Source of the DNA: Candidatus Omnitrophota bacterium
Lineage (GTDB): Bacteria; Omnitrophota; Gorgyraeia; Zapsychrales; JAKLDJ01
DNA length: 64,000 bases
Assembly: GCA_022703585.1 (NCBI GenBank)
Contig: JAKLDJ010000001.1
Location: 440,695-504,694 of the forward strand
Direction: 5' to 3'
The notes below the pieces were generated by a model. That model had not been told where the DNA came from. It searched no databases and saw only the letters and a list, made by a program, of their open reading frames with translations. Each line of letters starts with the position of its first letter. The first letter of the stretch is position 1. A program made the position numbers and the translations under genes. Positions 565-33,878 of the stretch are shown one piece after another.

Positions 565-3500
565 CTAAATCGGCAAAACCACGGTGAAAATACTGCCCTT
601 GCCGACCTCACTTTTTACTTTTATGGAGCCATTGTGTTCCTTGATAATACCCTGAGAGACAAAAAGTCCCAAGCCCGTCCCTGAATCGGTCTTGGTGGTA
701 AAAAAGGGCTGAAAGAGGTGGTCCATATCCTCCGGCCGGATTCCCTCGCCGGTGTCGGAAACTTGGACGCTGATCCATTCTTCGCCGCAGGAGGTGGTAA
801 TCGTAATCTGCCCGTCTTTTTTGATGCTGTCCTGGGAATTTAAAACAAGGTTTAAGAAAACCTGGTGGAGCTGCTGACGCCAGCCTTCAATGCGGGGGAT
901 GCCCTGGGCGAGATTTAATTTTAGCCGTATATTTCTTAAACCCAGCTGATGCTCTACCAGCGACTCGACCCGCTTGATAATTTCATTAATATCGACCTGG
1001 GTCTTCCCCTCGTCGGTGCCCCGGTAGGTATCCAGAAGCTTCATGACAATATCCTTGATCTTTTCGATATTGTTCTTAACAAATTCGTAATTTTTCATCT
1101 TTTCGAAATGCACCGGCAGGCTGTCGTGCATAATCTCCAGATGGGTCATAATTCCCTGCAGGGGATTGTTGATCTCATGGGCGATACTCGCTGCCAGGCG
1201 GCCCGTCGCTGCTAACCGTTCGGAATGCCGCAGCTCACGGGTACGCTCTTCGACTAATTCCTCGAGATGTTTGCGGTAATCGTCGAGTTCTTCTTCGACC
1301 TTTTTGCGCTCGGTGACGTCCTGCTCGACCGCCAGAAAGTGAACAATTTCATTTTTCTCATTTTTGATTGATGAAATACCCACCTGAGCCCAAAAGATTT
1401 CTCCGTCTTTCTTTTTGTTGGGAAATTCCCCCCTCCAAACGTTCCCGGAAATAATCGTTTCCCACATTTGTTGATACAGCAATTTCGGGGTTTCGTTCGA
1501 CTTGAGCAGGCGCGGATTTTTCCCAAAGACCTCATCCAGGCTGTAGCCGGTAATTTGAGCAAACCGGGGATTGACATACTCGATATTGCCTTTCGTATCG
1601 GTAATAATCACAATGCTGGGGCTTTGTTCAATAGCATGCGACAGCGTCTTGAGACTCTCCTCTTTTTCTTTGAGCTCCGTGATATCGGAAGAAACGCCTA
1701 AAACCGCCGGCGCGTTAGTGCCCAAAATCCTAAACGGGATTTTAGTTGTCTGCAGGATATGGACTTTCCCGGCAGAATCGGTAATAATTTCTTCCGGGAC
1801 AAATTTACGTTTGCCGCTTTCGATGACCTCCATGTCATCCTTTCGGAAATGGTGGACTTCCTCTTCGCTTTTTGCAAAATCGGAGTCCTTTTTCCCCAAA
1901 AGTTCCTCGACCGTCGTCCCGTAGGTATCGGCCACGGCTTTATTCACGATGACAAAATGCCCTTCGATATCTTTGGCAAAGACAAAATTGGGTGTCAGGT
2001 CAATAACCTGACGCAGCTTGGCTTCGTTGGCGCGCAAGACTTCATCCGTGCGTTTGCGTTCCATGGCATTAACAAAGATTCCCCCGACGATCTTAAGCAG
2101 AACGACAGTATCCTGCGACCATTCTTTTGGGCCGCGCACCGAATCAAATCCCAGAAATCCCATCAGTGACCCGGCGTAAACCATGGGGACAACGATAAGC
2201 GACTGCACATCCTGATCCTGAAAGAATTTCTTCTCATTGGCATATTGGGGGGGAATAGCAGAAACTTCTGGAACATAAAAGGTCTCTTGCTTTCTTATCT
2301 GTTGTTCGAATAAGGGAAATTGACGGACATCAATATCCTGCAGGATCTGTTCGGACGACACAACGCCCTGTCTGCACCATTCGTGCGTATTGACCATGAT
2401 CTTCTGATCATCTTTAAAAATAAAAATATAACTGCGATCCACTCCGGCAAATTCTCCAATAGCCCCCAGGGCATAATTGATCTCCTCGTCCATCTTTTCC
2501 GAGGACACATTAATAAAGCGGGATGAAACGTTGGTGAGCAGTTTCTCGAATTCGGCCTTGACCCGCAAAGCCTCTTCGGCTTTTTTTCGCTCGGTGATAT
2601 CGGTAATAATAGTCACGACCCGGACGGTCTTTCGGTTTTCCAGGATGGGGACTTTGCGTGTTTCGGTAACAAATTCCCTTCCTTTAACGATGTTGGTTTC
2701 TTCGGTCACAATCGCCTTGCCGGTTTCAAAGGTGCTGTGATATTGCTTGAGCACCTCATCTTTCAGGAACGGAAATACCTCAAAAACTTTTTTGCCCAAC
2801 GGATCTTTTTGCCCGCCGTAAGCCTGGCACCAGGTTGCGCAGGATTGGTTCATTAAAATAAGCTTCAGGTTTTCGTCTACCACGTGAATCGCGTCATCCA
2901 TTGCATCAATCGTGGAGCGATACCGGGATTCGCTTTCGCGCAAGGCCTCTTCCGTACGTTTTCGTTCGGTGATATTCTCAACCAAACCGTCATAACGGAT
3001 AATCCTGCCCTTTTCATCACGGTAAGGGACATGGGTGTTGCGTATCCATATGATTTCTCCGTCCCGGCGGATAATGCGGTGTTCGATGGGAAAAACTTCT
3101 TCGCCGGCCAGGAGCCGGTCAATGGACTTTTCGACCAGCTTGCGGTCATCGGGATAAATCATCTCGTGCCAGAGGTTAACCCTGCGGGCATAATCTTCCG
3201 GGCTATAGCCGGTAACCGCCAGGCATTCCTCGCTGTGGCGGGTCGATACCGCCCGGCCGGCCGAGACCTCGACCGAATACGTGTACAGGGTTACCGCATC
3301 GACCATTCTGCGGTAGCGCTCTTCGCTTTTTTTAAGCGCTTCTTCCCCTCTTACACGCGCGGTAACATCCTCATAAACCGCGACTATTTCGCCGGAGGGC
3401 AATTTGTAAACGTAATTTTCTCTCCACCCGGAAATCCTGTTGTCTTTATATAAAGCGGAAGGATGATTCGCGGGTTTACCCGTCTGCCAAACTTGTTTCA

Positions 3501-5697
3501 GGGTAACCAGAAGGCCGAATTCCTCCACGCCGGGAAACACCTCGCGAATACTTCTGCCGATAATATCCTCTTTTTTGACACTCTCCGTACGTTCAGCGGC
3601 TTTATTAAAATCCCTGATAATAAAATCGTTACCGTTCTCCTTTGCCTCGTAAACGGCAACGCAGCTGCTGATATTGTCAATTAATGTCTTGTGCCTGGCC
3701 TCACTCTCTCGCAGCGTCTCTTCTATCTTTTTACGCTCGGTAACATCACGGAAGGTCCCTTGCATAATCTTTCTTGCGCCCATATCAATAACAGCGGCGG
3801 CTATTGAGACTGTTTTTATTCTTCCCGACTTTGTAATAATCGGCACTTCGACCGGAGGCTCTTTGCCGGTGGCCTGTTTTTTAAATGCCTCTTTAACCGG
3901 GGCGCGGCTTTCGGGAGGATGCAGCATTTCCTGGTGCCGGCCGATAATCTCGTGCCTGGGTCTTTCAAACAGGTTCTCCGCTGCCCGATTACAATCAATG
4001 AGGGTTCCGGTGGTTATATCCGCCCAGACCAGGGCATCTGCCGCGTTTTCAAAAACAAGCCTGAATTTTAATTCACTCTCGGTGAGCGCTTCTTCCGCTT
4101 TTTTGCGCGCGGAGACATCCCTCCAGCCGGCCACAATACCCGTCGGCTGCCTGTTCCCATCGGTAACTAACCGCCCGGTGGCTTCGATCCACAGGTAATG
4201 CCCTTCGATATGCCGGGCCCGAAAAAGAGATGTTCCCTTTCCTTCTGCTATGATTTTTTTAAAAGTATTTTTTACGTTCTCGAGGTCTTCGGGGTGAATA
4301 AAAGGAAAAAGGTCTGTCCCTACCATCGCTTGAGGGTCGTAACCTAAAACGGACTTCATCGACGGGCTGTGGTAAACAATTTTTCCGTTTAAATCCAGCT
4401 CGGTAATCAATTCCAGGGTATTATCCGTAATCCGGCGCAGGCGTTTCTCTGAAATCTTAATCGCCTCATCCTGGCGGTAGCGTTCCTCCTCGACGCCGAT
4501 GGCGGAAGCAATAATCCCTATGGTCCGGGCATCAATTTCCTGAGGAGAAAAATCTTTTTGGTAAAGAACGCACAGGGAGCCGACATTCTTACCTGAAAAT
4601 TTGACCGCCTTGCCGACATAGGTTTGCAGCTTATAGCGGCTGACATTAGGATCCGTCTTGGCATAGATGCTGTGCATCAAATCGCGAATCACAACCAGGC
4701 CTTCTTTTTTGCTTTTGATGACATCATAACAGATATGTCCCTGCGGCCTGTCTTCGGGGACATAGTCTTTCGGGGCATTCCATTGCCCCAAAGAACACAG
4801 GGTATCGTTCTTTAGATGGTTATACAGCGCGCAGGTGGCATTGAGCATCTTGCCGCAGGAGGCGACCAGCCGGTTGATATTCTCAATCGGGTCCGGGCCG
4901 AAATTCAGGAAACACTCATTGATTTTTTCCAGGCGTTCTGCCAGCCGTTCGGGCCGGGAGATATCCCTGACAACAGCGATAACTTCCTCTTTCATTAAGG
5001 GAAGCAGGCGCGCTTCGAACTTTTTCTTCTCGCCGGAAACTGTTAAGAAATACTCAAAGCCAACGGGTGATTTTGTCTTTAAAACCCTGTGCAAGGCCTT
5101 TTTAAAAACACGGCCGACATGGGCAGGCAGGACATCCTGCATTTTTCTGTTTAAGAATTCTTCCGGCGGGACATACAGATCGTCTTCGCGGCCCGCCCCA
5201 TAGGCAAGAATGGCCCCGTCTTTAGACATGCGGAAAAAGAGGTCGGGGAATGCCTTAAAAATAGATTGCAACTCGAGGCCGGCAAGCGCCAATTCTTCCC
5301 GCATTTTTTTATACTTGAGATTAGCGCGTACAATACGTGCGAGAAGTTTTGCGTCAATTTCTTCTTTGAAAAGATAATCCTGCGCGCCGCGTTTTAATAC
5401 CTGGGGCCAGGTTTTAAAACGGACGCTGAGGATGGCCACCAGGGGGATATCGGCAGCCTGGGCATGAATGCGCGTCGTCGTATTTAACCCCTGGCTGTCC
5501 GGCAACTCGAGGCCGGCAAAGATTATGTCGACTTTTCCCCGACGGAGAAAACCAAGGCCGTGCTGGAGAGTGCGGACACATTTTACGGAAATCGAATATT
5601 CTTTTTGGGAGGTAAAGGCTTTGCGCAGCAGGCGAATTTCTTGGGCATCCGCATCAATCAATAAAATCTTTGCCCGCTGAAGAATGGTTTTCTCCAT
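565..5697 (-). CDS. Giant (1710 aa) hybrid sensor histidine kinase: N-terminal receiver domain, about 9 tandem PAS/PAC domains with a GAF-like segment, C-terminal HisKA plus HATPase_c.
   Basis: ORF-track protein. N-terminal receiver (KILLIDADAQEIRLL...DIIFAGLELPDSQG). Repeated PAS hallmarks (multiple ...ITERKKAEEAL/ERKRTEEAL linkers). H-box HSERLAATGRLAASIAHEINNPL. G-boxes DTGEGI...GTGLGLFVSQGII. Confidence 0.85.
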   Translation of the reverse strand: MEKTILQRAKILLIDADAQEIRLLRKAFTSQKEYSISVKCVRTLQHGLGFLRRGKVDIIFAGLELPDSQGLNTTTRIHAQAADIPLVAILSVRFKTWPQVLKRGAQDYLFKEEIDAKLLARIVRANLKYKKMREELALAGLELQSIFKAFPDLFFRMSKDGAILAYGAGREDDLYVPPEEFLNRKMQDVLPAHVGRVFKKALHRVLKTKSPVGFEYFLTVSGEKKKFEARLLPLMKEEVIAVVRDISRPERLAERLEKINECFLNFGPDPIENINRLVASCGKMLNATCALYNHLKNDTLCSLGQWNAPKDYVPEDRPQGHICYDVIKSKKEGLVVIRDLMHSIYAKTDPNVSRYKLQTYVGKAVKFSGKNVGSLCVLYQKDFSPQEIDARTIGIIASAIGVEEERYRQDEAIKISEKRLRRITDNTLELITELDLNGKIVYHSPSMKSVLGYDPQAMVGTDLFPFIHPEDLENVKNTFKKIIAEGKGTSLFRARHIEGHYLWIEATGRLVTDGNRQPTGIVAGWRDVSARKKAEEALTESELKFRLVFENAADALVWADITTGTLIDCNRAAENLFERPRHEIIGRHQEMLHPPESRAPVKEAFKKQATGKEPPVEVPIITKSGRIKTVSIAAAVIDMGARKIMQGTFRDVTERKKIEETLRESEARHKTLIDNISSCVAVYEAKENGNDFIIRDFNKAAERTESVKKEDIIGRSIREVFPGVEEFGLLVTLKQVWQTGKPANHPSALYKDNRISGWRENYVYKLPSGEIVAVYEDVTARVRGEEALKKSEERYRRMVDAVTLYTYSVEVSAGRAVSTRHSEECLAVTGYSPEDYARRVNLWHEMIYPDDRKLVEKSIDRLLAGEEVFPIEHRIIRRDGEIIWIRNTHVPYRDEKGRIIRYDGLVENITERKRTEEALRESESRYRSTIDAMDDAIHVVDENLKLILMNQSCATWCQAYGGQKDPLGKKVFEVFPFLKDEVLKQYHSTFETGKAIVTEETNIVKGREFVTETRKVPILENRKTVRVVTIITDITERKKAEEALRVKAEFEKLLTNVSSRFINVSSEKMDEEINYALGAIGEFAGVDRSYIFIFKDDQKIMVNTHEWCRQGVVSSEQILQDIDVRQFPLFEQQIRKQETFYVPEVSAIPPQYANEKKFFQDQDVQSLIVVPMVYAGSLMGFLGFDSVRGPKEWSQDTVVLLKIVGGIFVNAMERKRTDEVLRANEAKLRQVIDLTPNFVFAKDIEGHFVIVNKAVADTYGTTVEELLGKKDSDFAKSEEEVHHFRKDDMEVIESGKRKFVPEEIITDSAGKVHILQTTKIPFRILGTNAPAVLGVSSDITELKEKEESLKTLSHAIEQSPSIVIITDTKGNIEYVNPRFAQITGYSLDEVFGKNPRLLKSNETPKLLYQQMWETIISGNVWRGEFPNKKKDGEIFWAQVGISSIKNEKNEIVHFLAVEQDVTERKKVEEELDDYRKHLEELVEERTRELRHSERLAATGRLAASIAHEINNPLQGIMTHLEIMHDSLPVHFEKMKNYEFVKNNIEKIKDIVMKLLDTYRGTDEGKTQVDINEIIKRVESLVEHQLGLRNIRLKLNLAQGIPRIEGWRQQLHQVFLNLVLNSQDSIKKDGQITITTSCGEEWISVQVSDTGEGIRPEDMDHLFQPFFTTKTDSGTGLGLFVSQGIIKEHNGSIKVKSEVGKGSIFTVVLPI

Positions 5698-12304: not shown

Positions 12305-13696
12305 CTAAATTCTCGAGCTTGAGCCTTTTTTGACAAACTCTTGCATAATCTCGAAATCAAGCAGGCCCATTTCATATAGTTCTTTGAGACGGCTTTCCAA
12401 GGTATACATCCCGTACTCGCGGCCGGTTTGTATGCTTAAGGGCATCTGGATAAATTTTCCTTCGCGTATCATATTTCTTACCGCCGTGCTGACAATCAGC
12501 AGTTCCGTGGCTAAAACACGCCCTCCCATCCGTCCGGGAAGCAAACGCTGAAACAGAATCCCTATGAGGCATGAGGCGATCTGCTGACAAATGCTCGCGG
12601 CATGCTCGGGAGGAAAAAGATTGACCAGTCTTTCAATAGCCTGGGTAGTGTCGGGGGCGTGCACTGTTGAAATAACCAGATGGCCGGTCTCGGCTGCCCG
12701 GATAGAAGACAGCACGCACTCGCTGTCTAAGAGCTCGCCCACCACGACCACGTCGGGATCCTGATGAAGGCTGCGTTTTAAGGCCTCGGCATAGGAAAGG
12801 GTGTCGCTTCCCAGTTCGCGCTGCTTGATGACACCTTTCTGGCTGACATGAACATACTCGACCGGGTCTTCGATAGTAATAACGACCCTCTCTTGGGTCT
12901 TGTTGATAAAATCGATCATGGAGGCCATGGTCGTCGTCTTGCCACTGCCCGTGGGCCCGGCGACAAGAATCAACCCTGACTTTTCTTTGCAAAAACGTTC
13001 CATCGCCTCGACAGGCAAGGCCAAATCTTTAAAGCTTTTTGTCGTCGGGGGGATACTTCTTAAGGTGGCCTCCAAAAATCCTTTTTGCAGATGCATGTTG
13101 GTGCGAAAGCGGGAGCTGAGGCTGGGGGAAAAAGCAAAATCCAATTCTTTATTTTTCTCAAAGTTTGCGATTTGAGTATTGCTTAACAGCGGATAGATCA
13201 TGGCCTTGATCTGACCCTCTTCCAAGGTATCCATTTTTAGAGTTTGTATCCTGCCGTCTTTTCTTACAATAGGCGAACGGCCGACGGTTAAGTGCAAATC
13301 AGAGGCCCCAAGCTTAAGCGCCTGGTCTAGAATAGAATACAGGTTTAGTTTCTCCAGCGAGGAGGCAATGAAATTCCGGTCCTCGGGACTAATTTCGTGA
13401 AAGGCAGCCCCAATCAAATAGGCCTCTTTGCCCATGACGGTTTCGATGCGGGCTACTTTTAATTTTGTCCTGATGGGTTTTTTACTGCCGGGCAGATGAA
13501 TTTCCGTCAAGATAACAGTGTCGATAGGATAGATGCTTCTGGATTCAAAGGAAATGCCGTTGGCGCTTAAATCTTTATTGATAACCTCTATTCCCCGCCC
13601 GACGGGTTTGTTGTCGCCGGAAATCTCCCAGCAGATCATGGGGACGCGGACATTGCGCCTTTCCCAAAATCTTTTGTTTTGATCAAAATTAAGCAC
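12305..13696 (-). CDS. PilZ-domain / PilT-type twitching-motility ATPase fusion protein (GTG start).
   Basis: N-terminal ~110 aa PilZ-like (RRNVRVPMICWEI...GISFES). C-terminal PilT/PilU core with Walker A GPTGSGKTT, Asp box, Walker B VVVVGEL and His box TVHA. Confidence 0.8.
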   Translation of the reverse strand: MLNFDQNKRFWERRNVRVPMICWEISGDNKPVGRGIEVINKDLSANGISFESRSIYPIDTVILTEIHLPGSKKPIRTKLKVARIETVMGKEAYLIGAAFHEISPEDRNFIASSLEKLNLYSILDQALKLGASDLHLTVGRSPIVRKDGRIQTLKMDTLEEGQIKAMIYPLLSNTQIANFEKNKELDFAFSPSLSSRFRTNMHLQKGFLEATLRSIPPTTKSFKDLALPVEAMERFCKEKSGLILVAGPTGSGKTTTMASMIDFINKTQERVVITIEDPVEYVHVSQKGVIKQRELGSDTLSYAEALKRSLHQDPDVVVVGELLDSECVLSSIRAAETGHLVISTVHAPDTTQAIERLVNLFPPEHAASICQQIASCLIGILFQRLLPGRMGGRVLATELLIVSTAVRNMIREGKFIQMPLSIQTGREYGMYTLESRLKELYEMGLLDFEIMQEFVKKGSSSRI

Positions 13697-13821
13697 CCAG
13701 GCCTCTTTCTTAAACCGGCTGTCTTTATAGATTTTAAACGCGCTTCTCTAAAACACAACAGCTTAATTATAGAGCGCCCGTTTGAGCTTGGCAATGAAAA
13801 GCGCGATAATCCACAGCCACC

Positions 13822-15207
13822 TTATTTGTGCGCCTTTTTTGTGTGGGCCTTGGGGAACCCTTCAATAGCCTTGATGGATTTCTTTAATTCGCCATCCGGC
13901 AGCGAATATCGCTCCAGCTTGCCGGTGAGATATTTTTCGTATCCGGCCAAATCCATCAGGCCGTGGCCGCTATAGTTAAACAAGATGACTTTTTCCTTGC
14001 CCTCTTCCTTGGCCTTTTTGGCCTCTTCGATTGTCACGGCAATCGCGTGACTGGTCTCGGGGGCGCAGATAAACCCTTCGGTCTTGGCCCAAATCATGGC
14101 CGATTCGTAACATTGCACCTGATCAACCGAACGGGGCGTCAATAAGCCTTCTTCAATACCGTGGCTGACCATCGGCGCCATGCCGTGATACCGTAAACCC
14201 CCGGCGTGAATCGGCGGAGGGACAAATTGGTGCCCGAGGGTGTACATCGCCAGCAAAGGCGTCATCCCGGCCATATCGCCGAAGTCATAGGCAAAAATCC
14301 CCCGCGTCATCTTCGGGCACGACGAAGACTCAACCGGAATAATCTCGATTTTCTCGCCGTTAATCTTATCGTGCACAAACGGAAATGCGATCCCGGCAAA
14401 ATTGCTTCCGCCGCCGGCGCAGCCGATGACAATATCCGGCTTCTTCTCTCCGGCGATCTTTAGCTGCTTCTTGGCCTCAAGGCCGATAATGGTTTGATGC
14501 AAAAGGACGTGGTTTAAAACGCTGCCCAGCGAATAACGCGTCTGGCCGGATTTGTCCCCCACCGCCTCCTCAATCGCTTCGCTAATGGCAATCCCAAGGC
14601 TGCCGGGAGTATCCGGCATCCTTTTTAAAACCTCTTTTCCGAAATGCGTCTCGTGGCTGGGGCTGGCCACACACTTGGCCCCCCAGACATGCATCATGAG
14701 TTTGCGCATCGGTTTCTGGTCAAAGCTGACGCGCACCATAAAAACCTTGCACTCAAGTCCCAGCAAACTACAAGCGAATGCCAGGGCCGTGCCCCATTGC
14801 CCGGCACCGGTTTCGGTGGTGAGTTTCTTGATGCCGAATTTTTTGTTGTACCAGGCCTGGGCAACCGCGGTATTGGGTTTATGACTGCCACCGGGTGAGA
14901 CGCTTTCGTCTTTGTAGTAAATACGCGCCGGTGTTTTGAGATATTCTTCCAGATATTTAGCACGCCGTAACGGCACCGGACGCCAGCGGGCAAGGATCTC
15001 GAGAATTTCTTCGGGGATATCAATCCAGCGCTCCCGGCTGACCTCCTGCTCGATTAAATTCATCGGGAAGACCGCTGCCAGCTGGTCGGGAGAAATTACT
15101 TTCCCGTCGGGGCCTATGGGCGGCAAGCAGCCGGGCATGTCGGCGTTGAGGTTGTACCACTGGCGCGGCATTTCTTTTTCGCTTAAATTGATTTTGATTT
15201 CGCTCAT
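13822..15207 (-). CDS. trpB2: Tryptophan synthase beta-chain-like PLP enzyme, TrpB2 type (stand-alone).
   Basis: TrpB2-type N-terminus MSEIKINLSEKEMPRQWYN. PLP-lysine context HGGSHKPNTA. GGAG RBS before the internal ATG. The track's N-terminal 60-aa extension is rejected. Confidence 0.85.
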   Translation of the reverse strand: MSEIKINLSEKEMPRQWYNLNADMPGCLPPIGPDGKVISPDQLAAVFPMNLIEQEVSRERWIDIPEEILEILARWRPVPLRRAKYLEEYLKTPARIYYKDESVSPGGSHKPNTAVAQAWYNKKFGIKKLTTETGAGQWGTALAFACSLLGLECKVFMVRVSFDQKPMRKLMMHVWGAKCVASPSHETHFGKEVLKRMPDTPGSLGIAISEAIEEAVGDKSGQTRYSLGSVLNHVLLHQTIIGLEAKKQLKIAGEKKPDIVIGCAGGGSNFAGIAFPFVHDKINGEKIEIIPVESSSCPKMTRGIFAYDFGDMAGMTPLLAMYTLGHQFVPPPIHAGGLRYHGMAPMVSHGIEEGLLTPRSVDQVQCYESAMIWAKTEGFICAPETSHAIAVTIEEAKKAKEEGKEKVILFNYSGHGLMDLAGYEKYLTGKLERYSLPDGELKKSIKAIEGFPKAHTKKAHK

Positions 15208-15459
15208 AAAAACTCCTTTAATTATTTTAAAATTTTGAAAGAATACGCTGTGAAAATACGAAGTTATTTTACTGCGGATAACCAATGAAGGCAAGGGCGT
15301 AAATAAAAAACCCACAGCCTTAAATCCGCGGAGAGCGCAGCGTGAAATCCTATCTAAATAATATTTTCTCTTCTTCCCATTCAATTTCTACCGTATTATA
15401 ATTTATGGTGAGGTTCAGCCATGCGACGATCCAACGTGTAGCCATACACGAGGTTTCCC

Positions 15460-16923
15460 ATGGATAAAAAAATGAAAATAACCCCTTTTGAAGGTTCTTC
15501 GGTTTTACGAAAATTCACCATCTTCTTTATTTTAATGTCGCTGATCCCGGTTGGTGTCCTTTATTACTTGTATGCCGAGGTTAAAGAACGCGGGAAGTTG
15601 GACATCACCGCAGCTGATTTGAATTTAACCCTGATTTTTACCATGCTGGGTGTTTTAATCGGATATTTTGCTATCCGCTCTTTATTGACCAGCATCACGG
15701 GGATCGCCCGGTCAAAAGAAAATGCCCTCAAGGAAGTTTTGGGCCCGGACAAATTTCAGGAGCTCGTTGCCGGCGAACATAACGAAATCACCGTCCTGGC
15801 CAAATCCTTTAACGAGATCACATCCCGGCTTGAAGCCAATATCAAAAGCCTTGAAATCGCCAAAAAAACCCTTCATTCGGTCCTCTCCCGGGTAGGGGAA
15901 GGTATTTCGTCGATGCAAAATATCGATAATTTTCTCAATCTTATCGTCGAGACGGTCACCGACGCCCTGCAGGCCAATGTTGGGGCCCTGATGCTCTTTG
16001 ACGAACAAAAAAATGAGCTTCTTGTTAAATCGGTTTACGGCGCCAACCCGGGAGCGAGAGAAATCCGTCTTAAGGCGGACGAATGCGCGGCCGGGATCAC
16101 CATCAAGACCCAAAAGCCGCTCATGATTCCAAAATTGGCCAGCCAAAACACGACTTCTTCCAAATACGGATTTTTATTTGAAGAGCCTTTATTGTGCGCG
16201 CCTTTGATCCTGCACGATAAAACCCTGGGGGTGATTTCGGTCAGCCGAAAAAAAGACGGCGGGAATTTTGATGAAGAGGAATTAAATCTGCTTTACAACC
16301 TGGCGCTTCAAACCGCGGTGGCGGTGGAGAACGCCAAGCTCAACAAAGACGCCGAGAAAACCTATTTTGAAACCATATCCGCCCTGGCTTTGGCCGTCGA
16401 TGCCAAAGACCCGTATTCGCGCGGGCACTTGGACCGCGTGGCAAAATACGCGGTGCAAATCGCCGAGCGATTCGGGTTAAGTGTGGACGAAAAAAATACG
16501 CTGCGCGACGCCGCCCGGCTTCACGACCTTGGAAAAATCGGCGTCACCGACGAAATCTTAAGCCGCCCGGGCCCTTTGGATGCCGAGGCATGGTCGCTGA
16601 TGAAAAAACACCCCGAGATCGGGGAAGGCATTATCAAACCGATCAGCTCTTTACGGAACCTCTGCGACATCATCCGCCATCACCACGAAATGCTCGACGG
16701 CAGCGGCTACCCCGACGGACTAAAAGGCGATGAGATCAGTTTGTTTGCTCGGATTTTATCGGTCGCGGATATCTTTGATGCCATTACCACCGACCGCCCC
16801 TACCGCAAGGCCTGCACTCCAAACGAGGCCATTGCCAAATTGCGGGAGATGAAAACAGCGATCGATCAAAAGGTGGTTGGTGCCCTGCAGGATTTTGTGA
16901 ATGAAAACAGGCAGGTGATGTAG
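15460..16923 (+). CDS. Membrane-anchored HAMP-GAF-HD-GYP protein (probable c-di-GMP phosphodiesterase).
   Basis: N-terminal TM helices. HD motif RLHDLGKIG. HHHEMLDGSGYPDGL = GYP motif. Confidence 0.85.
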   Translation: MDKKMKITPFEGSSVLRKFTIFFILMSLIPVGVLYYLYAEVKERGKLDITAADLNLTLIFTMLGVLIGYFAIRSLLTSITGIARSKENALKEVLGPDKFQELVAGEHNEITVLAKSFNEITSRLEANIKSLEIAKKTLHSVLSRVGEGISSMQNIDNFLNLIVETVTDALQANVGALMLFDEQKNELLVKSVYGANPGAREIRLKADECAAGITIKTQKPLMIPKLASQNTTSSKYGFLFEEPLLCAPLILHDKTLGVISVSRKKDGGNFDEEELNLLYNLALQTAVAVENAKLNKDAEKTYFETISALALAVDAKDPYSRGHLDRVAKYAVQIAERFGLSVDEKNTLRDAARLHDLGKIGVTDEILSRPGPLDAEAWSLMKKHPEIGEGIIKPISSLRNLCDIIRHHHEMLDGSGYPDGLKGDEISLFARILSVADIFDAITTDRPYRKACTPNEAIAKLREMKTAIDQKVVGALQDFVNENRQVM

Positions 16924-16937: not shown

Positions 16938-19724
16938 CTATTCCCGCACCCTAATCAGATAGATGCGCCCATCTTGTTGATAGACAACTTTGTCGCCGGA
17001 AATCTTTGGCGCTTCTTCCGACAGCGGATTATCCGTTAACGCGACATCCTGGAAATCAGCGTTTTGCAAATCAGTGATTCGGATATCCTTATTGCCCGCG
17101 CGGCTATCTTCCCAGACGATGCGGCTGCCGCTAATATCCGGGCTGGTCTGGCTTGAAGAATTATTAACAACCGCTGTTGTCTGGCCGCTGGCGATGTCAT
17201 AGAGCATAATGTCCTTATTGTTATTGCCGTTACGATAGTCCTCCCAGACAATCTTATTGGCGTCTATTTTCGCCCTCAGCTTGACCCAATCACCGTTATC
17301 CACCGGGATAAGACCGCCGTCATCTGGGGTGCCGTAGAGCCGATCCAAGCCCAGGTCGTAGCTAAGGATATCATAAAATGCTCCGCGTTTACTCTCCCAG
17401 ACGATATAGCGGCTCCAGATGTCGGGTCGGGCAGCTTCGGGATTCCCTTCGGCAACGCGATGGATACCGCCTGACGGCATAAGAGTCCGATTAAACGACG
17501 GGGGCGGCGGCGCATAATGAAAAACGTCTTTTAAATTGCCCCCAAGATATTCTTGCCATACGAGGGCATTATTATAAATAGCCGGGAATTGGGCATTGCT
17601 TGCCGCGGACGTGATGGCGCTGACCCCGATGTCATCGGAAGTCCCGAACAGCCCGTCACCGCCCAAGCGATAAGTGAAGAGGCGGGACTTGCTATCCGGC
17701 TGTAGCTGTGCCCAGGCAATCGTGTTGGCGTAAATAGCCGGGTCGCTATCCCGCGCGGCAGACGATGTCACCTGTCTTTGAGGATTTGTTTCCAGGCTGT
17801 CGTCTTGCGTGCCAAAAACACCGTCCGGCCCCAGATTATATAAATAAATATTCATATCCCCCCGCCGTTCGTCTTGCCAGACAATTTTGTTTCCGTCAAT
17901 GGCGGGTTTGTTTCCCGTTGCGATCATGGCCACATCTTCATAATTGGTTTCGATATAAAACGGAAGGTTCCCGGCATTATTCTCTTCATAGCGTTCGTCG
18001 ATTTCTCCGTAATTGCCATCGCCCAGGGGATCAGTATCGCGGTCGACAACACAATAAAGGTCTGTCCCGGTGCCCGGGGCCCAACCCTCCTGCCGGGGGA
18101 CACTGACTTCAACCATCTCCTCGGAATCACCCTCCATGTCAATCTCTGTTTCAGCGATACGCGTGCCTCCCTGCTCGGGATCGCCTTCAAAAAGCTCAAC
18201 CGGAGCGTTGGCGACCGCACCCAGTCCGTTATTTTCGATCCGGATGCGGAAACGATATTCTTCCGAGGAAGGGATAAAACCGCTGATTGCGCAGGACAAT
18301 TCCGGCTTCTGCGAATCCCCGATCACCATATGGAGCGCCGGATCGCCGAGTAAATTGTAACGGAAACGGTGCTCGGTATTAGTCACCATATTTGATTTAG
18401 CCGCCAAGACCGCATCACCTAAAATCAGGATGTTCTCCGTCAGAATGGCCGCTAACAATTGATCAGCCAGGTTTTCATTGGGGTTAAACTGGGTCTCCCG
18501 CGAGGCGCCGACAAAGGCAACCGCGCCATTGTTGCGGCAACCGTCATCAAAACAGCTGTTGACAAATAATTCTCCGAAACTCTGCTGGTTAGGGTCGCCG
18601 CCCCAGGTCCAGTCGTGCGGAAAATCATACGCGGCGGTCTTGCAGGCCATGCTCAAAATAACGGGAAGCTTCCCGGCGTTGGTGAGGCTACGGATATCAC
18701 TCTCGGTAAAGCTGGCGCTGCCCATAAGCCATGTCAATTGCGAGCCGTGGCTGTTGTGAGCCACCAGGCCCCGGCCGCCGTTGATGTCCGCTTTCATCTG
18801 GGCAATGGTCAATAGGCCGTTATCGCTATTGTCTTGAATGTCAATTTCATTGAACTCCTTGCGGTTCCTGTCCACCAAATTATTGATAATCTCCGGCCAA
18901 TGGCTCTGGATCTCATCATTGAGGGCAAATCCGCTGGACATTAAAACCTTGGCACTCCAATCACCGTCAGCGGGAGCGTCTTCATACGCCTTGGTCTTCA
19001 AGACAACATTGGCCAATTCATTCTGATTCTGGACGCTAAAACGGCCGATGGGAAAATCGCCGTTACGGTCGAGTTCGTTGATAGGGAGATTTCCGTTGTC
19101 GTCGGTAACACAGGAATACCAGTAATCAGTAGGTACGTCCATACTGGTGTAGTAGGCCGGCAGATACCAGGCGGCTGTTGCGGGATAGGCATCACCGACC
19201 AAAAGGACATACTGCAGGGCCGGCGCACCGTCGTTCCAGTGCTCGAAGACATATTTTAAAAAGGTCTTAATTTCCAAGGCCTGGGTATCGCCATTGTTGT
19301 CACCCGTATACACGATCTCATTGTTCTGAGGGATCACGTTGCCGACGGCCGCGTAGACCGCGTTCGTGCTGACGACCGCAACATCAAAACCGTTATAGTC
19401 GGCGCGGTGTTGGGCCAATTCCAGCAGGGCCGGGCTTGAATAAAAGGGCTGCGCGGCAATAATCAAATAATTCGCCCGGTTAGAGCCGGCGGCTAAATCT
19501 AAAGGAAAAAACACCTCTCCGGCGCCAGGGAGGACGGGACGAAGCCGGTCGCCTTGCTTGACGACGTCGAGGCCGGAAGAAACAGCGTTCCTGGAAAAAT
19601 CTTTTTGGGAGACGCCCGGCGCAGAAATGGAAACGGCCTTAGCAAAATCTTTTGCCAGCGAATAGTGGCCGCTTAAAATAAATATGGCAACAAGAATGCC
19701 GGTGCAAATCAATGTTCTTTTCAT
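16938..19724 (-). CDS. Secreted 928-aa protein: peptidase C25 (gingipain)-like domain plus C-terminal beta-propeller repeats.
   Basis: Signal peptide MKRTLICTGILVAIFILSGHYSLA. HNSHGSQLTW and LSMACKTAAYDF resemble the C25 catalytic His/Cys regions. Seven repeats of the IVW(E/Q)D.R.GN.DIY.YDL type. GGAGGG RBS. Confidence 0.6.
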   Translation of the reverse strand: MKRTLICTGILVAIFILSGHYSLAKDFAKAVSISAPGVSQKDFSRNAVSSGLDVVKQGDRLRPVLPGAGEVFFPLDLAAGSNRANYLIIAAQPFYSSPALLELAQHRADYNGFDVAVVSTNAVYAAVGNVIPQNNEIVYTGDNNGDTQALEIKTFLKYVFEHWNDGAPALQYVLLVGDAYPATAAWYLPAYYTSMDVPTDYWYSCVTDDNGNLPINELDRNGDFPIGRFSVQNQNELANVVLKTKAYEDAPADGDWSAKVLMSSGFALNDEIQSHWPEIINNLVDRNRKEFNEIDIQDNSDNGLLTIAQMKADINGGRGLVAHNSHGSQLTWLMGSASFTESDIRSLTNAGKLPVILSMACKTAAYDFPHDWTWGGDPNQQSFGELFVNSCFDDGCRNNGAVAFVGASRETQFNPNENLADQLLAAILTENILILGDAVLAAKSNMVTNTEHRFRYNLLGDPALHMVIGDSQKPELSCAISGFIPSSEEYRFRIRIENNGLGAVANAPVELFEGDPEQGGTRIAETEIDMEGDSEEMVEVSVPRQEGWAPGTGTDLYCVVDRDTDPLGDGNYGEIDERYEENNAGNLPFYIETNYEDVAMIATGNKPAIDGNKIVWQDERRGDMNIYLYNLGPDGVFGTQDDSLETNPQRQVTSSAARDSDPAIYANTIAWAQLQPDSKSRLFTYRLGGDGLFGTSDDIGVSAITSAASNAQFPAIYNNALVWQEYLGGNLKDVFHYAPPPPSFNRTLMPSGGIHRVAEGNPEAARPDIWSRYIVWESKRGAFYDILSYDLGLDRLYGTPDDGGLIPVDNGDWVKLRAKIDANKIVWEDYRNGNNNKDIMLYDIASGQTTAVVNNSSSQTSPDISGSRIVWEDSRAGNKDIRITDLQNADFQDVALTDNPLSEEAPKISGDKVVYQQDGRIYLIRVRE

Positions 19725-24971: not shown

Positions 24972-27425
24972 TTACTCATCCTTCGCCGCAATGTTAGCGA
25001 CCGAGCTTACCGTATCTTTGGCGTCAAGTTTAATCAACCGCACGCCCATGGTGTTGCGCCCCGACTGGCGGATGTCCTTAACTGGACAGCGCACCATCAT
25101 GCCCTGCTTTGTAACTGCCATGATTTCGTCCTCGTCGGTCACCGAAACAACACCCACGACGATACCGGTTTTAGCTCCTACCTTCACATTGATGATTCCC
25201 TTGCCGCCGCGGGACTGTTTGCGGTATTCGTCAAACGCCGAGCGCTTAGCAAAACCTAAAGAAGTTACCGTTAAAATGGTGCTTCCGGTTTTGTCCACAT
25301 CCGGCGGAAAAACTTGCAGGCTCACCACAACATCACCTTTCCCGAGCCTGACTCCCCTCACGCCTTTGGCGCCGCGTCCCATATCGCGAATTTGCTTGGC
25401 CTCGAAACGTACCGCCTTGCCGTCTTTGGTAGCTAAAAGAATTTCGTCTTTGTCGTCGCCGATAGCGGTGCCAATAAGATAATCGCTTTTATCGAGCGTG
25501 ATCCCGACAATACCGCCTTTTCTGGGATTACTAAACGCTGAGAGCTTGGTCTTCTTTATGTTGCCCTGGGCGGTCGCCATCACCAGCGACTGCGCATCGC
25601 TAAATTCTTTGACTGCCACGATGGCACTAATAGCCTCGTCACTGGCCATAGACAGCAAGTTAACAATGGCCTTGCCCTTGGCCGTGCGTGAGGCGATAGG
25701 AATTTCATAAACCTTCAGCCAGCGCACCGTGCCCTTGCTGGAAAAAACCAATAAATAATCTTTTGAGGAGGCGATGAAAAGATTTTTGACAAAATCTTCT
25801 TCCTTGGTCTCCATTGCGGTCACGCCCTTGCCGCCGCGTTTTTGCTTGCGGTAGACATCAACGCCAAGCCGCTTGATATAGCCGGTATTGCTGATCGTGA
25901 TCGCCATGTCTTCTTCGGCAATCAAGTCTTCAATTTCGATCTCTTCGGCCTTGCCCGCGATTTCGGTGCGCCGTTCATCGCCAAAACGCTTTTTAACTTC
26001 AAGAAGCTCGTTTTTAATGATCTCGTCTATCTTTTTTTCAGATGCAAGAATGGCGCGGAACATGTCGATGTCTTTAAGCAGCTGTTTATATTCGGCTTCG
26101 ATCTTGTCTTGCTCGAGAGCGGTCAGGCGCTGTAATTGCATTTCCAGAATCGCCTGCGCCTGGATTTCGGAAAGCTTAAATTCCTTCATTAAAGCAATCT
26201 TGGCTTCAGCCGTGCTCTTGGATGATTTGATGACCTTGATAATCTGATTGATAAATTTAATCGCGATCCGCAAGCCCTCAAGGATATGCGCCCGTTTTAA
26301 GGCCTTGTCCAGGTCAAATTGGGTGCGCCGTCGGACAATTACCCGACGGTGGTCGATATAATAGGCCATCAATTGCTTCAAATTCAAAACCTGCGGCCGG
26401 CCGTTGACCAAGGCGAGATTAATAATACCGAATGTGGTTTCAAGCTGAGTGTGCTTATAAAGATAATTTAAAATAACCTGCGGCTCAACATCCCGCCGCA
26501 GCTCGATCACGACCCGGATACCGTCTTTGTCGGATTCGTCCCGTATGTCGGTGATACCTTCAACGCTTTTTTCCTGGACGAGATCGGCGATGGTTTCAAT
26601 CAAGTTGGCCTTATTAACCTGGTAAGGAATTTCGGTTACGATAATCGTGTCTTTGTTCCCTTTTTGCCGTTCAATGGAGGCCTTGGCGCGCAGCGTGATC
26701 TTCCCACGGCCGTTGGTGTAGGCGTCGGTGATCCCCTCGCGGCCGCAAATGATCCCTCCCGTTGGAAAATCCGGACCCTTAACATATTTTGTCAAATCCT
26801 TGATCGTAACTTCCGGGTCGTCGAGCAGGTGCACAACGCCTTCGACCACCTCGGTTAAATTGTGCGGCGCCATATTGGTGGCCATGCCTACCGCGATACC
26901 GCTGGAACCATTAACCAGCAAATTGGGGATAGCCGACGGCAAGATCAGGGGTTCTTTTAAGGTCGCGTCAAAATTAGGCCCAAAGTCCACGGTTTCTTTT
27001 TCGATATCGGCCATCATCTCGCCGGCAATCGAAGCCATGCGCGCTTCCGTATAGCGCATGGCCGCCGCGGAATCTCCGTCGACGGAACCGAAGTTTCCCT
27101 GCCCGTCAACCAACGGATAGCGCAAAGAAAATTCCTGCACCATCCTGACCATGGTATCGTAAACGGCCATATCACCGTGAGGATGGTACTTACCTAAAAC
27201 CTCTCCAACGATGCGCGCGCTTTTCTTATAGGGCTTGCTGTGTTCGAGCGAAAGATCCTGCATCGCGTAGAGAATGCGCCGATGGACCGGCTTTAAACCG
27301 TCCCTGACATCCGGCAGCGCGCGGCTGACAATAACGCTCATGGAATACGAGAGGTAAGATTTTTTCATCTCCTCTTCGATGTTAACGGGAATAATACGTT
27401 CTTTGGTGGTAAAGTCTTTTGACAT
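24972..27425 (-). CDS. gyrA: DNA gyrase subunit A.
   Basis: [24 protein letters not shown], active-site Tyr region [11 protein letters not shown]-terminal beta-pinwheel repeats. AGGAGAG RBS. Confidence 0.97.
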
Positions 27426-27435
27426 TGATTATCTC

Positions 27436-27508
27436 TCCTATAGGTCGTCAGCTTTCAGCCTTCAGCTATCAGCCGCTTTCAGCTGAAAGCCGAAGACTGA
27501 TGGCTGAA
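27436..27508. repeat. REP-like intergenic palindromic element (copy 1) in the gyrB-gyrA spacer.
   Basis: cgtcagctttcagccttcagctatcagccgctttcagctgaaagccgaagactgatggctgaaagc. Inverted arrays of (N)TCAGC(C) heptamers forming a long hairpin. Confidence 0.5.
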
Positions 27509-27510
27509 AG

Positions 27511-30338
<2,828 letters not shown>

Positions 30339-30418
30339 TCCAGACTCTCCGGGTTTTTAAGTTTTATTTTTTAGCACAAATCCCGGCCGGGCGCAATATT
30401 CCTTTTGTCAAACATTTG

Positions 30419-31516
30419 TCAAACATTTTGTAGGCGCATCGGTAAAGCCAAATACAGATAATCTTCCAGGCGCATGACCCCGGGTTTATCCGACCCTGAG
30501 AGTTCCCACTCGACATGCTCGGCATTGACGTTTTTTAGGACATCGATGAGAAACTGCGGGTTAAAACCAACGATAAGTTCCGGCCCGCCGTATTCGATCG
30601 CCACCTCTTCTCTTGATTCTCCGACATCAGGTGTTGTTTTGGAAACAATAAGCTTTTCTTTAAAAACCTCGAATTTGATCGCCTGAAAGTCCGGCGTTGT
30701 CAACAAATTGGCGCGCCGGATAGCTGAAAGCAAGTCCTGGGTGTTGATTTTGATTTTTGCGGCGACTGGTTCGGGAATAACCTGGCTATAATTAGGGAAT
30801 TCGCCTTCGATAATGCGGGTAGCAATTAAAATCCCTCCGATATCAAAAAGCGCCTGGTTGGCGCTTGCCACAAAGGAAAGCATCCCTTCTTCCTTTAAAT
30901 TACGGTTAATTTCGTGAATCGCTTTTATGGGGATAATGACGCTGATTTCTTTTTTGGTCGGATTGGGGAGTTTTTTCTCGATTTTCGCTAAGCGGCGCCC
31001 GTCCGTTGCCACGATCCGGATAACCTTGCTGTCAATTTCCAACAAAACCCCGTTTAAAACATACCGCGACTCCTCATGAGAAACCGCGAAAGATGTCAGA
31101 CGCAACATTTCTTTTAAAACGTTTTGCTCGATCTGCACGACTTCGGTGTCGTTAAATTCAGGGAATTTCGGAAACTCCTCTTTAGGCAAACCGCTTAATT
31201 TAAACCGGATCTTGTCCCCTTCGATTTCTATTTGATTATTTTTCTTAGTAACAATTGTAATATCCCCCGGGGGTAACTCTCTGATGATGTCGCTAAACTT
31301 TTTTGCCGGAATAGTTATCGCGCCTTCTTCAAGGATGCTCACAGGAACTTCACAGGATATTCCAATGTCCAAATCAGTCGCATTGAGTTTAATTGTGTCT
31401 TTTTTTGTTTCGATTAATAGATTGGACAAAATCGGAAGCGTGGATTTTGGATTAACGATGTTTTGGACAATTTGTATGCCCAGCAAGATGTTTTCCTTTG
31501 TTGTTTTAATCTTCAT
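30419..31516 (-). CDS. dnaN: DNA polymerase III beta sliding clamp.
   Basis: 365 aa, three-domain clamp. GGAGG RBS. Confidence 0.95.
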   Translation of the reverse strand: MKIKTTKENILLGIQIVQNIVNPKSTLPILSNLLIETKKDTIKLNATDLDIGISCEVPVSILEEGAITIPAKKFSDIIRELPPGDITIVTKKNNQIEIEGDKIRFKLSGLPKEEFPKFPEFNDTEVVQIEQNVLKEMLRLTSFAVSHEESRYVLNGVLLEIDSKVIRIVATDGRRLAKIEKKLPNPTKKEISVIIPIKAIHEINRNLKEEGMLSFVASANQALFDIGGILIATRIIEGEFPNYSQVIPEPVAAKIKINTQDLLSAIRRANLLTTPDFQAIKFEVFKEKLIVSKTTPDVGESREEVAIEYGGPELIVGFNPQFLIDVLKNVNAEHVEWELSGSDKPGVMRLEDYLYLALPMRLQNV

Positions 31517-31574
31517 TCAATCCTCCAAGTACTGTAATAATTATAATTAAAATAGCAGTAATCGTAGCAGGTTT

Positions 31575-31583
31575 TGTGGATAA
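31575..31583. promoter_or_regulatory. Perfect consensus DnaA box (TGTGGATAA) in the dnaA-dnaN intergenic region.
   Basis: gttttgtggataagttgaac read directly. Coordinates ±2. Confidence 0.5.
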
Positions 31584-31662
31584 GTTGAACACACCCAAAA
31601 CCCAAAACCCTTCAACACTTTACCGCAAAAAATCTTGTGAATTCACGGTGCATAAAACTGTG

Positions 31663-32991
31663 CTACTGTTTAATGTCAGTGGTTAACTTTTCAATAGCGT
31701 TTTTTAAACTATTGTCGGTTTTTATCTCCGCGTTAATCTTTTTCCAGGAATGCAAAACTGTTGTATGGTCTTTACCCCCAAAAGCACTCCCGATTTCCGG
31801 CAAAGAAAGATTGGTCAGCTGCCGCGTTAAATACATAGCCACCTGGCGCGGTAAAACGATGTTTTTATTACGTTTTCCGGTCTTAATATCCGCTAAGGAT
31901 ATATCAAAGAAGTTAGCCACTGCCTTCTGTATCATATCCGCGCTAACAGTTTTGATGCTTTCCTTAACCATATCCTTTAGAATAACTTGCGCCATTTCAA
32001 GCGAAACCGGCTTCTCTTCCAATAATGAATAGGCGGCGACTCGGATCAGAGCCCCCTCCAGCTCGCGGATGTTCGTCTTGATTTCCTGGGCAATAAACAA
32101 AATAACATCATCAGGAACCGGAACCGGCTCGCGCTCGATTTTTTTCCTTAATATAGCCACCCTGGTTTCAAAATCCGGCGGCTGGATATCTGCGACCAAA
32201 CCCCAGGTAAAACGCGAAACCAGGCGTTCCTCCAGATTGGGTATCTCTTTGGGCGGGCGGTCCGAAGAAACGATAATTTGCTTGCGATCATTGTGCAGCG
32301 CGTTAAAGGTATGAAAAAATTCCTCCTGGGTCGACTCCTTGCCGGCAATAAACTGAATGTCGTCAATCAAAATAACGTCGATGGTCCGGTATTTCTGGCG
32401 AAACTGCTGGCCGGAGCGATGGCGGATAGCATCAATCAATTCATTGGTGAATCGTTCAGAGGTGATGTAGGCATGCTTTAACTTGGGATTGGTCGCATGA
32501 ATTTTTTGCGCGATACTTTGCATCAAATGTGTTTTGCCCAATCCCACCCCTCCGTAAACAAAAAGAGGATTGTAGGCCTTGGCCGGGGATTCGGCCACGG
32601 CCAAAGATGCCGCATGCGCGAAACGGTTGGAAGCGCCCACCACAAAATTATCAAAAGTAAAACGCGGGTTTAAATTCGAAACATGATTTTCGGAAGACTG
32701 AAAGTTTTTTTCCAGCTGCGCCAATCGAACCTGGGTCCCCTGTTTTAAAATTTGGGCGTTTACCTGAAACTCAATCGCGACGGGTTTGGTGCTGACATTT
32801 AAGACCGAATCGGTGATGAGGTCCAGATAATGCTCGATGACCCAGTTTTTAAAAAAGTCATCAGGCGTTTGGATGATCAGCGTCTCGGGGGTTTTCTCTT
32901 CGGCCCGTAAAGGCGAGAACCAGGTTTCGTAGGCCGTTGAACCGATGCGTTCTTTGATGGGCCCTTGAATTTTTTCCCAAATGGCGGACAT
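31663..32991 (-). CDS. dnaA: Chromosomal replication initiator protein DnaA.
   Basis: Walker A GGVGLGKTHL, sensor motifs, C-terminal DNA-binding helix-turn-helix (VAMYLTRQLT). Confidence 0.97.
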   Translation of the reverse strand: MSAIWEKIQGPIKERIGSTAYETWFSPLRAEEKTPETLIIQTPDDFFKNWVIEHYLDLITDSVLNVSTKPVAIEFQVNAQILKQGTQVRLAQLEKNFQSSENHVSNLNPRFTFDNFVVGASNRFAHAASLAVAESPAKAYNPLFVYGGVGLGKTHLMQSIAQKIHATNPKLKHAYITSERFTNELIDAIRHRSGQQFRQKYRTIDVILIDDIQFIAGKESTQEEFFHTFNALHNDRKQIIVSSDRPPKEIPNLEERLVSRFTWGLVADIQPPDFETRVAILRKKIEREPVPVPDDVILFIAQEIKTNIRELEGALIRVAAYSLLEEKPVSLEMAQVILKDMVKESIKTVSADMIQKAVANFFDISLADIKTGKRNKNIVLPRQVAMYLTRQLTNLSLPEIGSAFGGKDHTTVLHSWKKINAEIKTDNSLKNAIEKLTTDIKQ

Positions 32992-33688: not shown

Positions 33689-33696
33689 TGACCACT

Positions 33697-33834: not shown

Positions 33835-33878
33835 CGCTGCCACGAGCTCGGTATCGCAATCCCATCGCGCGCAAAAAT

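Follow-up and report, generated by a model that had tools for sequence, protein, structure and literature searches.

Control of type IV pili by cyclic di-GMP (c-di-GMP), a second messenger, is known at the extension motor, where it acts through MshEN domains or through the PilZ–FimX–PilB complex, and through transcription. In ATPases of the MshE, PilB2 and PilF type, pilus dynamics follow c-di-GMP via an MshEN/GSPII domain (PMC5013675, PMC4624772, PMC11731258). In Xanthomonas and Pseudomonas, a PilZ-fold protein touches the type IV pilus ATPase and links it to c-di-GMP signalling (PMC8389850); this PilZ stands on its own as a protein and has lost its binding motifs and part of its barrel, c-di-GMP is sensed by the EAL domain of FimX, and the target is PilB (10.1101/814665). 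Elsewhere, c-di-GMP bound to a PilZ domain controls an enzyme attached to it or brings a motor to a halt, in cis in BcsA and Alg44 and in trans in the flagellar brakes YcgR and MotI, with a glycosyltransferase, an alginate polymerase and the flagellar stator or rotor as outputs, none of them a T2SSE-family ATPase. A census of PilZ architectures gave PilZN, HlyD, REC, GGDEF, EAL, HD-GYP, MCP and CheC as partners, and not PilT or T2SSE, while a 2023 review listed the retraction ATPase PilT as not binding c-di-GMP (PMC10333796). The gene considered here lies on the minus strand (12305..13696, stop codon included) of a 64-kb stretch of contig JAKLDJ010000001.1 from a Candidatus Omnitrophota bacterium, the whole of which is called the window below, and it encodes, with near certainty, a two-domain protein consisting of PilZ and a complete PilT. 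It is read as a PilT-type retraction motor that would be gated in cis by c-di-GMP through its N-terminal PilZ domain, a moderately probable reading whose functional part we infer.

The open reading frame (ORF) list placed the gene at exactly these coordinates, with a GTG start and a product of 463 amino acids (aa). An identical protein from Candidatus Omnitrophota in the NCBI nr database (P0279) carried no annotation beyond PilT/PilU family ATPase, and the homologue search found the identical protein on a 1.27-Mb JGI contig. Pfam detected both PilZ and T2SSE in the product, and TIGR01420 matched its ATPase part. An alternative public call of the identical sequence (P0280; JGI/ENA) started at Met20 (window position 13639), giving 444 aa and losing the RxxxR motif of the PilZ domain, whereas the NCBI call, starting at the GTG (window position 13696), retained it. 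The 463-aa start was preferred over Met20 because a Shine-Dalgarno sequence, AGAGG (13702..13706, minus strand), lay 5 nt 5' of the GTG, because aa 1–19 were conserved among homologues at the amino-acid level, and because P0279 was identical to the longer product. In addition, a consensus scan gave a match, and a match only, to a sigma-70-type promoter-like site (TTGCCA-17-TATAAT, 11/12 consensus matches; 13766..13794, minus strand) in the 125-bp gap that follows the upstream TrpB-like gene, which suggests that the fusion gene may have a promoter of its own.

The PilZ domain (aa ~7–116; 13349..13678, minus strand) was delimited by Pfam, AlphaFold2 and Foldseek and comprised an N-terminal RxxxR loop, six β-strands and a C-terminal helix. 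Pfam matched PF07238 to aa 21–112 with 27.6 bits and an E-value of 3.9e-6, against a gathering cut-off of 22.5 bits. The alignments placed the RxxxR region at aa 9–17 (R9 FWE R13 R14 NV R17; 13646..13672, minus strand) and the (D/N)xSxxG motif, DLSANG, at aa 42–47 (13556..13573, minus strand), with the normal spacing of about 20–30 residues between them. A second RxxxR can be read in the same region, R13-RNV-R17; the family-conserved pair was R9/R13. R9, R13, S44 and G47 were invariant in a 26-sequence alignment of PilZ domains (A2), and R13 and G47 were each at least 90% conserved in an alignment of 115 homologues (A1), whose N-terminal consensus read EKRxxxRRxIxIP…DLSxxGxxF.

AlphaFold2 predicted strands at residues 19–25, 31–43, 47–52, 61–66, 75–86 and 93–100 and a helix at 104–116, that is, the six-stranded barrel and C-terminal helix expected of a canonical PilZ, with a predicted local distance difference test score (pLDDT) of 86.2 when the domain was modelled on its own. 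A Foldseek search of the Protein Data Bank (PDB) with this domain model returned, at E ≤ 0.001, PilZ-domain chains with a probability of 1.00, nearly all of them c-di-GMP-binding. The top match was MotI (5vx6, MotI/DgrA; E 2.8e-6, TMq 0.74–0.77), and the others were Alg44, BcsA, MrkH, PA0012, YcgR and VCA0042, with PlzA and the non-binding Xanthomonas PilZ falling just short of the threshold. No T2SSE_N/MshEN domain was found in the fusion protein by Pfam at E ≤ 1, which sets it apart from the MshE type, and with both motifs and a six-strand barrel it also stands apart from the non-binding 'type II' PilZ proteins of Xanthomonas and Pseudomonas. By motif content and predicted fold, the N-terminal domain is classified as a canonical, motif-bearing PilZ, and binding of c-di-GMP by the fusion protein is considered quite likely.

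The rest of the protein was PilT. Its N2D domain (aa ~119–215; 13052..13342, minus strand) was delimited by TIGR01420, which matched from aa 119, and by alignments to PilT chains of the PDB; its C-terminal ATPase domain (CTD; aa ~229–450; 12347..13012, minus strand) was delimited by Pfam T2SSE (aa 229–387) and by superposition. PF00437 (T2SSE) scored 139.8 bits, and TIGR01420, 'PilT/PilU family type 4a pilus ATPase', scored 383.6 bits against a cut-off of 319.1 over aa 119–450, spanning positions 2–333 of the 343 in the model. The best sequence matches among solved structures were the PilT proteins of A. aeolicus (298 bits), P. aeruginosa and Geobacter (range 260–298 bits), and all of these alignments began at aa ~115–121 of the query. 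When the predicted structure was superposed on G. metallireducens PilT4 and P. aeruginosa PilT, TMt reached as much as 0.92, at a root mean square deviation of 1.5–2.0 Å over ~335 columns; no solved chain covered the PilZ part in these superpositions with solved PilT.

The catalytic motifs were complete. Walker A (GPTGSGKTT, aa 247–255; 12932..12958) had G247, G252, K253 and T255 invariant among the 115 homologues, and the Asp box (ITIEDPVEY, aa 273–281; 12854..12880) had E276, P278 and E280 invariant. The atypical Walker B with the catalytic Glu (DPDVVVVGE321-L-L323-D, aa 313–324; 12725..12760) comprised DPDVVVVGE at aa 313–321, its Gly and catalytic Glu being G320-E321, and E321 was invariant. 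In the His box (ETGHLVISTVHA, aa 336–347; 12656..12691), H339 was kept in 106/115 and H346 in 112/115 sequences. The alignment also located an AIRNLIRE-like motif, AVRNMIREGK (aa 405–414; 12455..12484, like the other four on the minus strand), in which A405 was invariant and I410, R411 and E412 were at least 90% conserved (AVRNMIRE, 405–412). The AIRNLIRE motif is said to tell PilT from PilU, a distinction attributed to Aukema et al. in 2005. R198 was invariant and R213 at least 90% conserved; the two lie 15 residues apart, like R271 and R286 of G. metallireducens PilB, and on this spacing and conservation they are presumed to be the arginine fingers of N2D. With this presumptive mapping of the fingers, every feature of the universal set of PilT-like ATPases (Walker A and B, catalytic Glu, two Arg fingers, ASP-box Glu and HIS-box His; McCallum 2017, PMC5424180) was matched in the query. 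The initial annotation, made from the sequence alone, had proposed a c-di-GMP-receptor-type PilZ domain fused to the N-terminus of a PilT/PilU core with intact motifs, to be given up if the domain failed the PilZ profiles or lacked its binding residues. Neither failure occurred: the profile scan found both domains, PF07238 scored over its cut-off, R9/R13 and DLSANG were present, and the fold was that of PilZ. The core was complete as well, with Walker A/B, Asp and His boxes in place, but not identical to that of ordinary PilT, as GE(M/I)RD has become GE(L/I)LD.

Compared with canonical PilT (2EWV/2GSZ, 3JVV/3JVU and PilT4 6OJX–6OLM), the protein was 40–45% identical over aa ~115–452 and shared the N2D + CTD fold, Walker A/B, catalytic Glu, Asp and His boxes, putative arginine fingers and AIRNLIRE-like motif, whereas it differed in having Leu for the Arg of GE(M/I)RD and ~116 N-terminal residues of PilZ, which no solved PilT has. 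As in MshE, PilB2 and PilF, a predicted c-di-GMP receptor domain is fused N-terminally and in cis to an ATPase of the PilT/GspE superfamily. However, the receptor is a PilZ β-barrel and not the helical MshEN domain, and the motor belongs to the PilT retraction clade and not to the PilB/GspE extension clade, so that the predicted output is retraction, not assembly. The resemblance to PilZ–FimX–PilB lies in the use of a PilZ fold at a type IV pilus ATPase, but here the PilZ is canonical, motif-bearing and covalently attached to PilT. BcsA and Alg44, which work in cis, and YcgR and MotI, which work in trans, were the likeness in structure, being the best matches of the N-terminal domain. A full-text literature search, including combinations with retraction ATPase and Omnitrophota, found no description of a PilZ–PilT fusion; the architecture is visible in public Pfam domain strings, yet it appears undescribed and uncharacterised in the literature.

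Homology searches revealed more than 115 homologues of 425–500 aa with 49–70% identity and the same architecture, most of them annotated with PF07238 and PF00437, and the named close homologues were all 'Candidatus Omnitrophica/Omnitrophota'. When only the PilZ part served as the profile in an exhaustive search of 1.84 billion representative proteins, this added eight proteins of 453–506 aa, all PilZ + T2SSE by Pfam, which were 31–45% identical to the query over the whole length and all carried RxxxR and (D/N)xSxxG; both motifs were kept in all nine divergent fusions of this identity range. Among the clusters of divergent fusions, one was labelled Omnitrophota and one 'Patescibacteria group', an unverified NCBI label that gene context neither confirmed nor refuted, and the family is not claimed beyond Omnitrophota. 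A further profile search, of genome contigs with the full-length alignment, sampled the taxonomic range incompletely and had three fusions among the matches listed. One candidate for a natural PilZ-less relative, P0108 (372 aa), was rejected, as a PilZ domain lay upstream in another frame (L008, 9655-11119); the frameshift, in a long-contig assembly, is probably a sequencing or assembly error. Since this lone apparent PilZ-less close relative was a frameshifted fusion, PilZ is taken as obligatory in the clade. The fusion is thus not peculiar to the source genome but defines a conserved clade of proteins, known mainly from Omnitrophota, and throughout this deep clade the PilZ–PilT arrangement has been kept by purifying selection.

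Other unusual architectures were also observed. P0126, with 4841 aa, appeared as a giant poly-PilZ protein in which 22 separate stretches matched the PilZ profile. P0107, P0111 and P0119 (722–746 aa) each had two GEMRD motifs and were apparent tandem double-PilT fusions; P0111 and P0119 had two Walker A motifs, and P0107 was labelled Alphaproteobacteria.

In the proposed mechanism, a PilT-type hexameric retraction ATPase would carry PilZ welded to the N-terminus of its N2D domain, and c-di-GMP would be clamped between the RxxxR loop (R9/R13) and the DxSxxG strand (D42–G47) of the barrel, as in other PilZ domains. The full-length AlphaFold2 model, with the family alignment as input, had a pLDDT of 94.7 and a predicted template modelling score (pTM) of 0.89, which argues for a defined arrangement of the two domains. 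In this model, the first PilT helix (119–128) starts two residues past the PilZ helix (104–116), and PilZ would be joined to N2D by a rigid junction lacking a flexible linker. With one helix running almost directly into the other, ordering of the loop would pass to N2D. This domain carries the arginine fingers and forms the subunit interfaces, open and closed, that drive the motor cycle of the hexamer (PMC6858323, PMC5424180). The outcome would be changed ATPase turnover, or changed docking of the hexamer on the PilC/PilM platform, and the c-di-GMP level would feed directly into pilus retraction. The favoured sign is that retraction is inhibited when c-di-GMP is high, by analogy with the YcgR/MotI brakes and with MshE, through which c-di-GMP promotes piliation (PMC7096442), although the data do not decide it. 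The most likely partner would be the type IVa pilus. A survey of Omnitrophota, which mentions neither PilT nor c-di-GMP, reported that most genomes in each class encode type IVa pili and that Tad complexes occur in many genomes (PMC10066038). A canonical HD-GYP gene in the window (see below) implies that c-di-GMP turnover exists in the source genome.

Several points weigh against this reading. The PilZ score of the query exceeded its threshold only modestly, c-di-GMP binding is deduced from motifs and fold, and the packing of PilZ on N2D comes from a predicted monomer model. A coherent subclade without one or both motifs retains the full-length N-terminal domain. With the Arg next to the catalytic Glu lost, ATPase activity could be altered or weak. 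PilZ-less PilT paralogues are encoded in Omnitrophota as well and could be the main retraction motor; these ordinary paralogues were 44–49% identical to the fusion core and had GEMRD, and one of them, in another Omnitrophota (L017), was likewise surrounded by metabolic genes, a setting that favours neither view. Finally, in ten loci including the window, the fusion gene never adjoined pilB, pilC or pilMNOPQ.

This last observation speaks for the alternative that survives best, although it is unlikely: that the same c-di-GMP-sensing ATPase serves another machine, either a Tad-type pilus or some other secretion or uptake system. Tad-type pili normally have no dedicated retraction ATPase. The window itself held no pilus genes apart from the fusion, as the initial annotation had noted, neither by Pfam on ORFs of at least 150 aa nor by a six-frame scan for prepilin N-termini nor by family hidden Markov models (HMMs) against all ORFs of at least 50 aa. 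Three related Omnitrophota loci shared the conserved block (dnaA-dnaN-dciA-gyrB-gyrA)-PilZ-PilT-2-hydroxyacid dehydrogenase-GST-CN hydrolase-MDH-rotamase-RcpC-secretin-(CbiA+T2SSE), in which the fusion gene lies on the same strand as, and five genes upstream of, a Tad-like cluster (L003, 16093-20800; L005, 9722-14537; L006, 16238-21151). This cluster consisted of RcpC, a secretin and a ~720-aa fusion of CbiA/ParA-like and T2SSE domains, like TadZ joined to CpaF, followed by DUF192. The commonness of Tad complexes in Omnitrophota (PMC10066038) and the departure of the clade from ordinary PilT at GE(M/I)RD also speak for another machine. However, the five intervening genes are metabolic, the three Tad-linked loci are syntenic and hence not independent, and Tad genes are missing from the neighbourhood of the fusion gene in the window and in five other loci. 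The window retained the order gyrA…PilZ-PilT-CN hydrolase…MDH, with insertions and without the Tad genes, and in the remaining homologous loci the fusion gene stood among unrelated housekeeping genes. Moreover, the protein scores as a type 4a PilT/PilU and has the AIRNLIRE-like PilT signature.

The distribution of the two binding motifs bears on whether PilZ could instead be a c-di-GMP-independent structural or adaptor module, acting in localisation, partner binding or hexamer stability, which is judged quite unlikely. Among the 108 full-length members, both motifs were present in 81, RxxxR only in 15, DxSxxG only in two and neither in 10, and PF07238 individually matched 92. The 27 members without one or both motifs keep the N-terminal domain, and 16 no longer match the PilZ HMM. 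In a tree of only the ATPase parts, motif loss was concentrated in one subtree (such as P0064, P0067, P0071, P0082, P0089 and P0103; P0050, P0101 and P0112 are further examples) and one small group, and such phylogenetic clustering favours an adaptor. That the subclade keeps the domain after motif loss implies that the domain is of some use even apart from c-di-GMP; the loss suggests either a c-di-GMP-independent role or that c-di-GMP signalling was itself lost in those lineages. PilZ proteins that act on pilus ATPases without binding c-di-GMP are also known (10.1101/814665, PMC8389850). However, these Xanthomonas-type proteins have no N-terminal loop and an incomplete barrel, whereas the query has the loop and six strands. 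Both motifs are intact in the query, which falls in a clade retaining both, and in 75% of the family; the four residues invariant in A2 rank with the domain's most conserved positions, and the divergent fusion lineages all keep both motifs.

The second departure from ordinary PilT lies beside the catalytic Glu, where the query reads GELLD and canonical PilT reads GE(M/I)RD. Position 323 was Leu in 99/115 family members. As a control, PilT-like ORFs were collected from 80 loci of species-representative genomes obtained by the profile search of genome contigs: Arg was present in every PilZ-less PilT and Leu in only the three PilZ fusions, a fourth regular-expression match for the Leu variant proving false. 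Since it is confined to fusions while the PilZ-less controls all keep Arg, Leu323 marks the PilZ–PilT clade. No published role for this Arg was found, and the McCallum papers (PMC6858323, PMC5424180) assign it none. Position 318, the equivalent of PilT L201, was Cys in 70/115 members and Val in the query; L201C is cited as making N. gonorrhoeae PilT ~2-fold slower (PMC6821130).

These substitutions allow two further proposals. In one, considered quite improbable, the clade would form a class of pilus motor of its own, with a catalytic cycle that has come to depend on c-di-GMP: loss of the Arg would disable autonomous cycling, and the rigidly held PilZ with c-di-GMP would restore or block the active interface between N2D and CTD. 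In possibly predatory or parasitic Omnitrophota, such a motor might be the missing dedicated retraction ATPase of the Tad pilus or a switch between attaching to host cells and pulling on them. In the other, which is decidedly unlikely, the protein would be an attenuated or inactive motor that acts as a c-di-GMP-dependent competitor or brake at the docking site, excluding PilB or ordinary PilT. The replacement of GE(M/I)RD by GE(L/I)LD against the uniform Arg of the controls, Cys318 in most members (though not the query) beside the slower L201C variant cited for N. gonorrhoeae PilT, and the coexistence of ordinary PilT paralogues in the phylum would all fit such a brake. Against it, the Walker A Lys, Asp-box Glu, catalytic Glu, His box and putative arginine fingers are invariant or nearly so, which argues for selection on ATP hydrolysis, and the literature gave no catalytic role to the missing Arg.

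An artefact, whether from chimeric assembly, from a start called wrongly or from a PilZ-like match arising by chance, could draw on the Met20 call of P0280 without RxxxR and on the modest PilZ score, but it is dismissed as extremely improbable because more than 115 homologues from independent assemblies share the architecture and an identical nr protein exists, with aa 1–19 conserved, AGAGG 5 nt ahead of the GTG and a PilZ fold-match probability of 1.00.

In the window, the fusion gene shared the minus strand with both of its neighbours, the gene of a TrpB-like pyridoxal phosphate (PLP) enzyme upstream and that of a CN hydrolase downstream. The TrpB-like gene (13822-15384) encodes 520 aa from a TTG start in the ORF list, but its PALP domain begins at aa 134. 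Translation probably starts further downstream, and the distance to the divergent HD-GYP gene beyond it would then be larger. That gene (15460..16923, plus strand) encodes a membrane-anchored protein with GAF and HD_5 domains (Pfam; 130.5 bits for HD_5), two N-terminal hydrophobic segments, and canonical HDLGK and HHHEMLDGSGYP motifs (HHExxDGxGYP), plausibly a membrane-bound c-di-GMP phosphodiesterase judging from its translation. The initial annotation had pointed to an HD-GYP phosphodiesterase gene 1.7 kb from the fusion. The gene is real, and its start lies 1764 bp from the fusion start codon, but it is not a conserved neighbour and no evidence links the two. As a functional partner it was rejected: it lies on the opposite strand with the TrpB-like gene in between, and no HD-GYP, GGDEF or EAL gene was near the fusion in nine homologous loci, so its proximity is treated as coincidental.

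The window also spans the chromosomal origin, with dnaA, dnaN, gyrB, gyrA, yidC, parA and parB. By Pfam and GC skew, the origin region extended over 24972-35782, with gyrA, gyrB, dnaN and dnaA as minus-strand genes, yidC as a plus-strand gene, and parA/parB further on; GC skew changed sign at ~33–34 kb and GC fell to 0.37 at 34–36 kb. In the relatives L003, L004 and L006, a small dciA gene lay between dnaN and gyrB. A Peptidase_C25 (gingipain-family) protein of 928 aa (16938-19724), whose long C-terminal region had no Pfam match, was encoded in the stretch that separates the fusion gene from the origin-proximal block, a place left empty in the relatives. A signalling protein of 1710 aa (565-5697) combined an N-terminal receiver with many PAS domains, GAF, HisKA and HATPase_c. 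Finally, pheS (47993-49036) and pheT (58452-60491), usually adjacent, were split by five plus-strand ORFs of 469–660 aa (49459-58241), three of which ended in a Peptidase_S74 chaperone domain, typical of phage tail fibres and endosialidases, while the other two had no Pfam match.

These results also concern annotation. Automated start calls can conceal a c-di-GMP motif: Met20-type starts delete RxxxR, and the feature is easily overlooked, the more so as present annotation labels the fusion proteins as plain 'PilT/PilU family' ATPases. If the reading as a gated retraction motor is true, retraction, and not only extension or transcription, would be under direct second-messenger control. The fusion would then offer a single-polypeptide system for studying how a small-molecule sensor gates a hexameric motor of the PilT/VirB11 type, with the substitution beside the catalytic Glu as a second handle on the mechanism. 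The phylum in which it occurs is uncultured; its bacteria are ultra-small and may be predators or parasites, and their type IVa and Tad pili are regarded as central to the way they attach to hosts.

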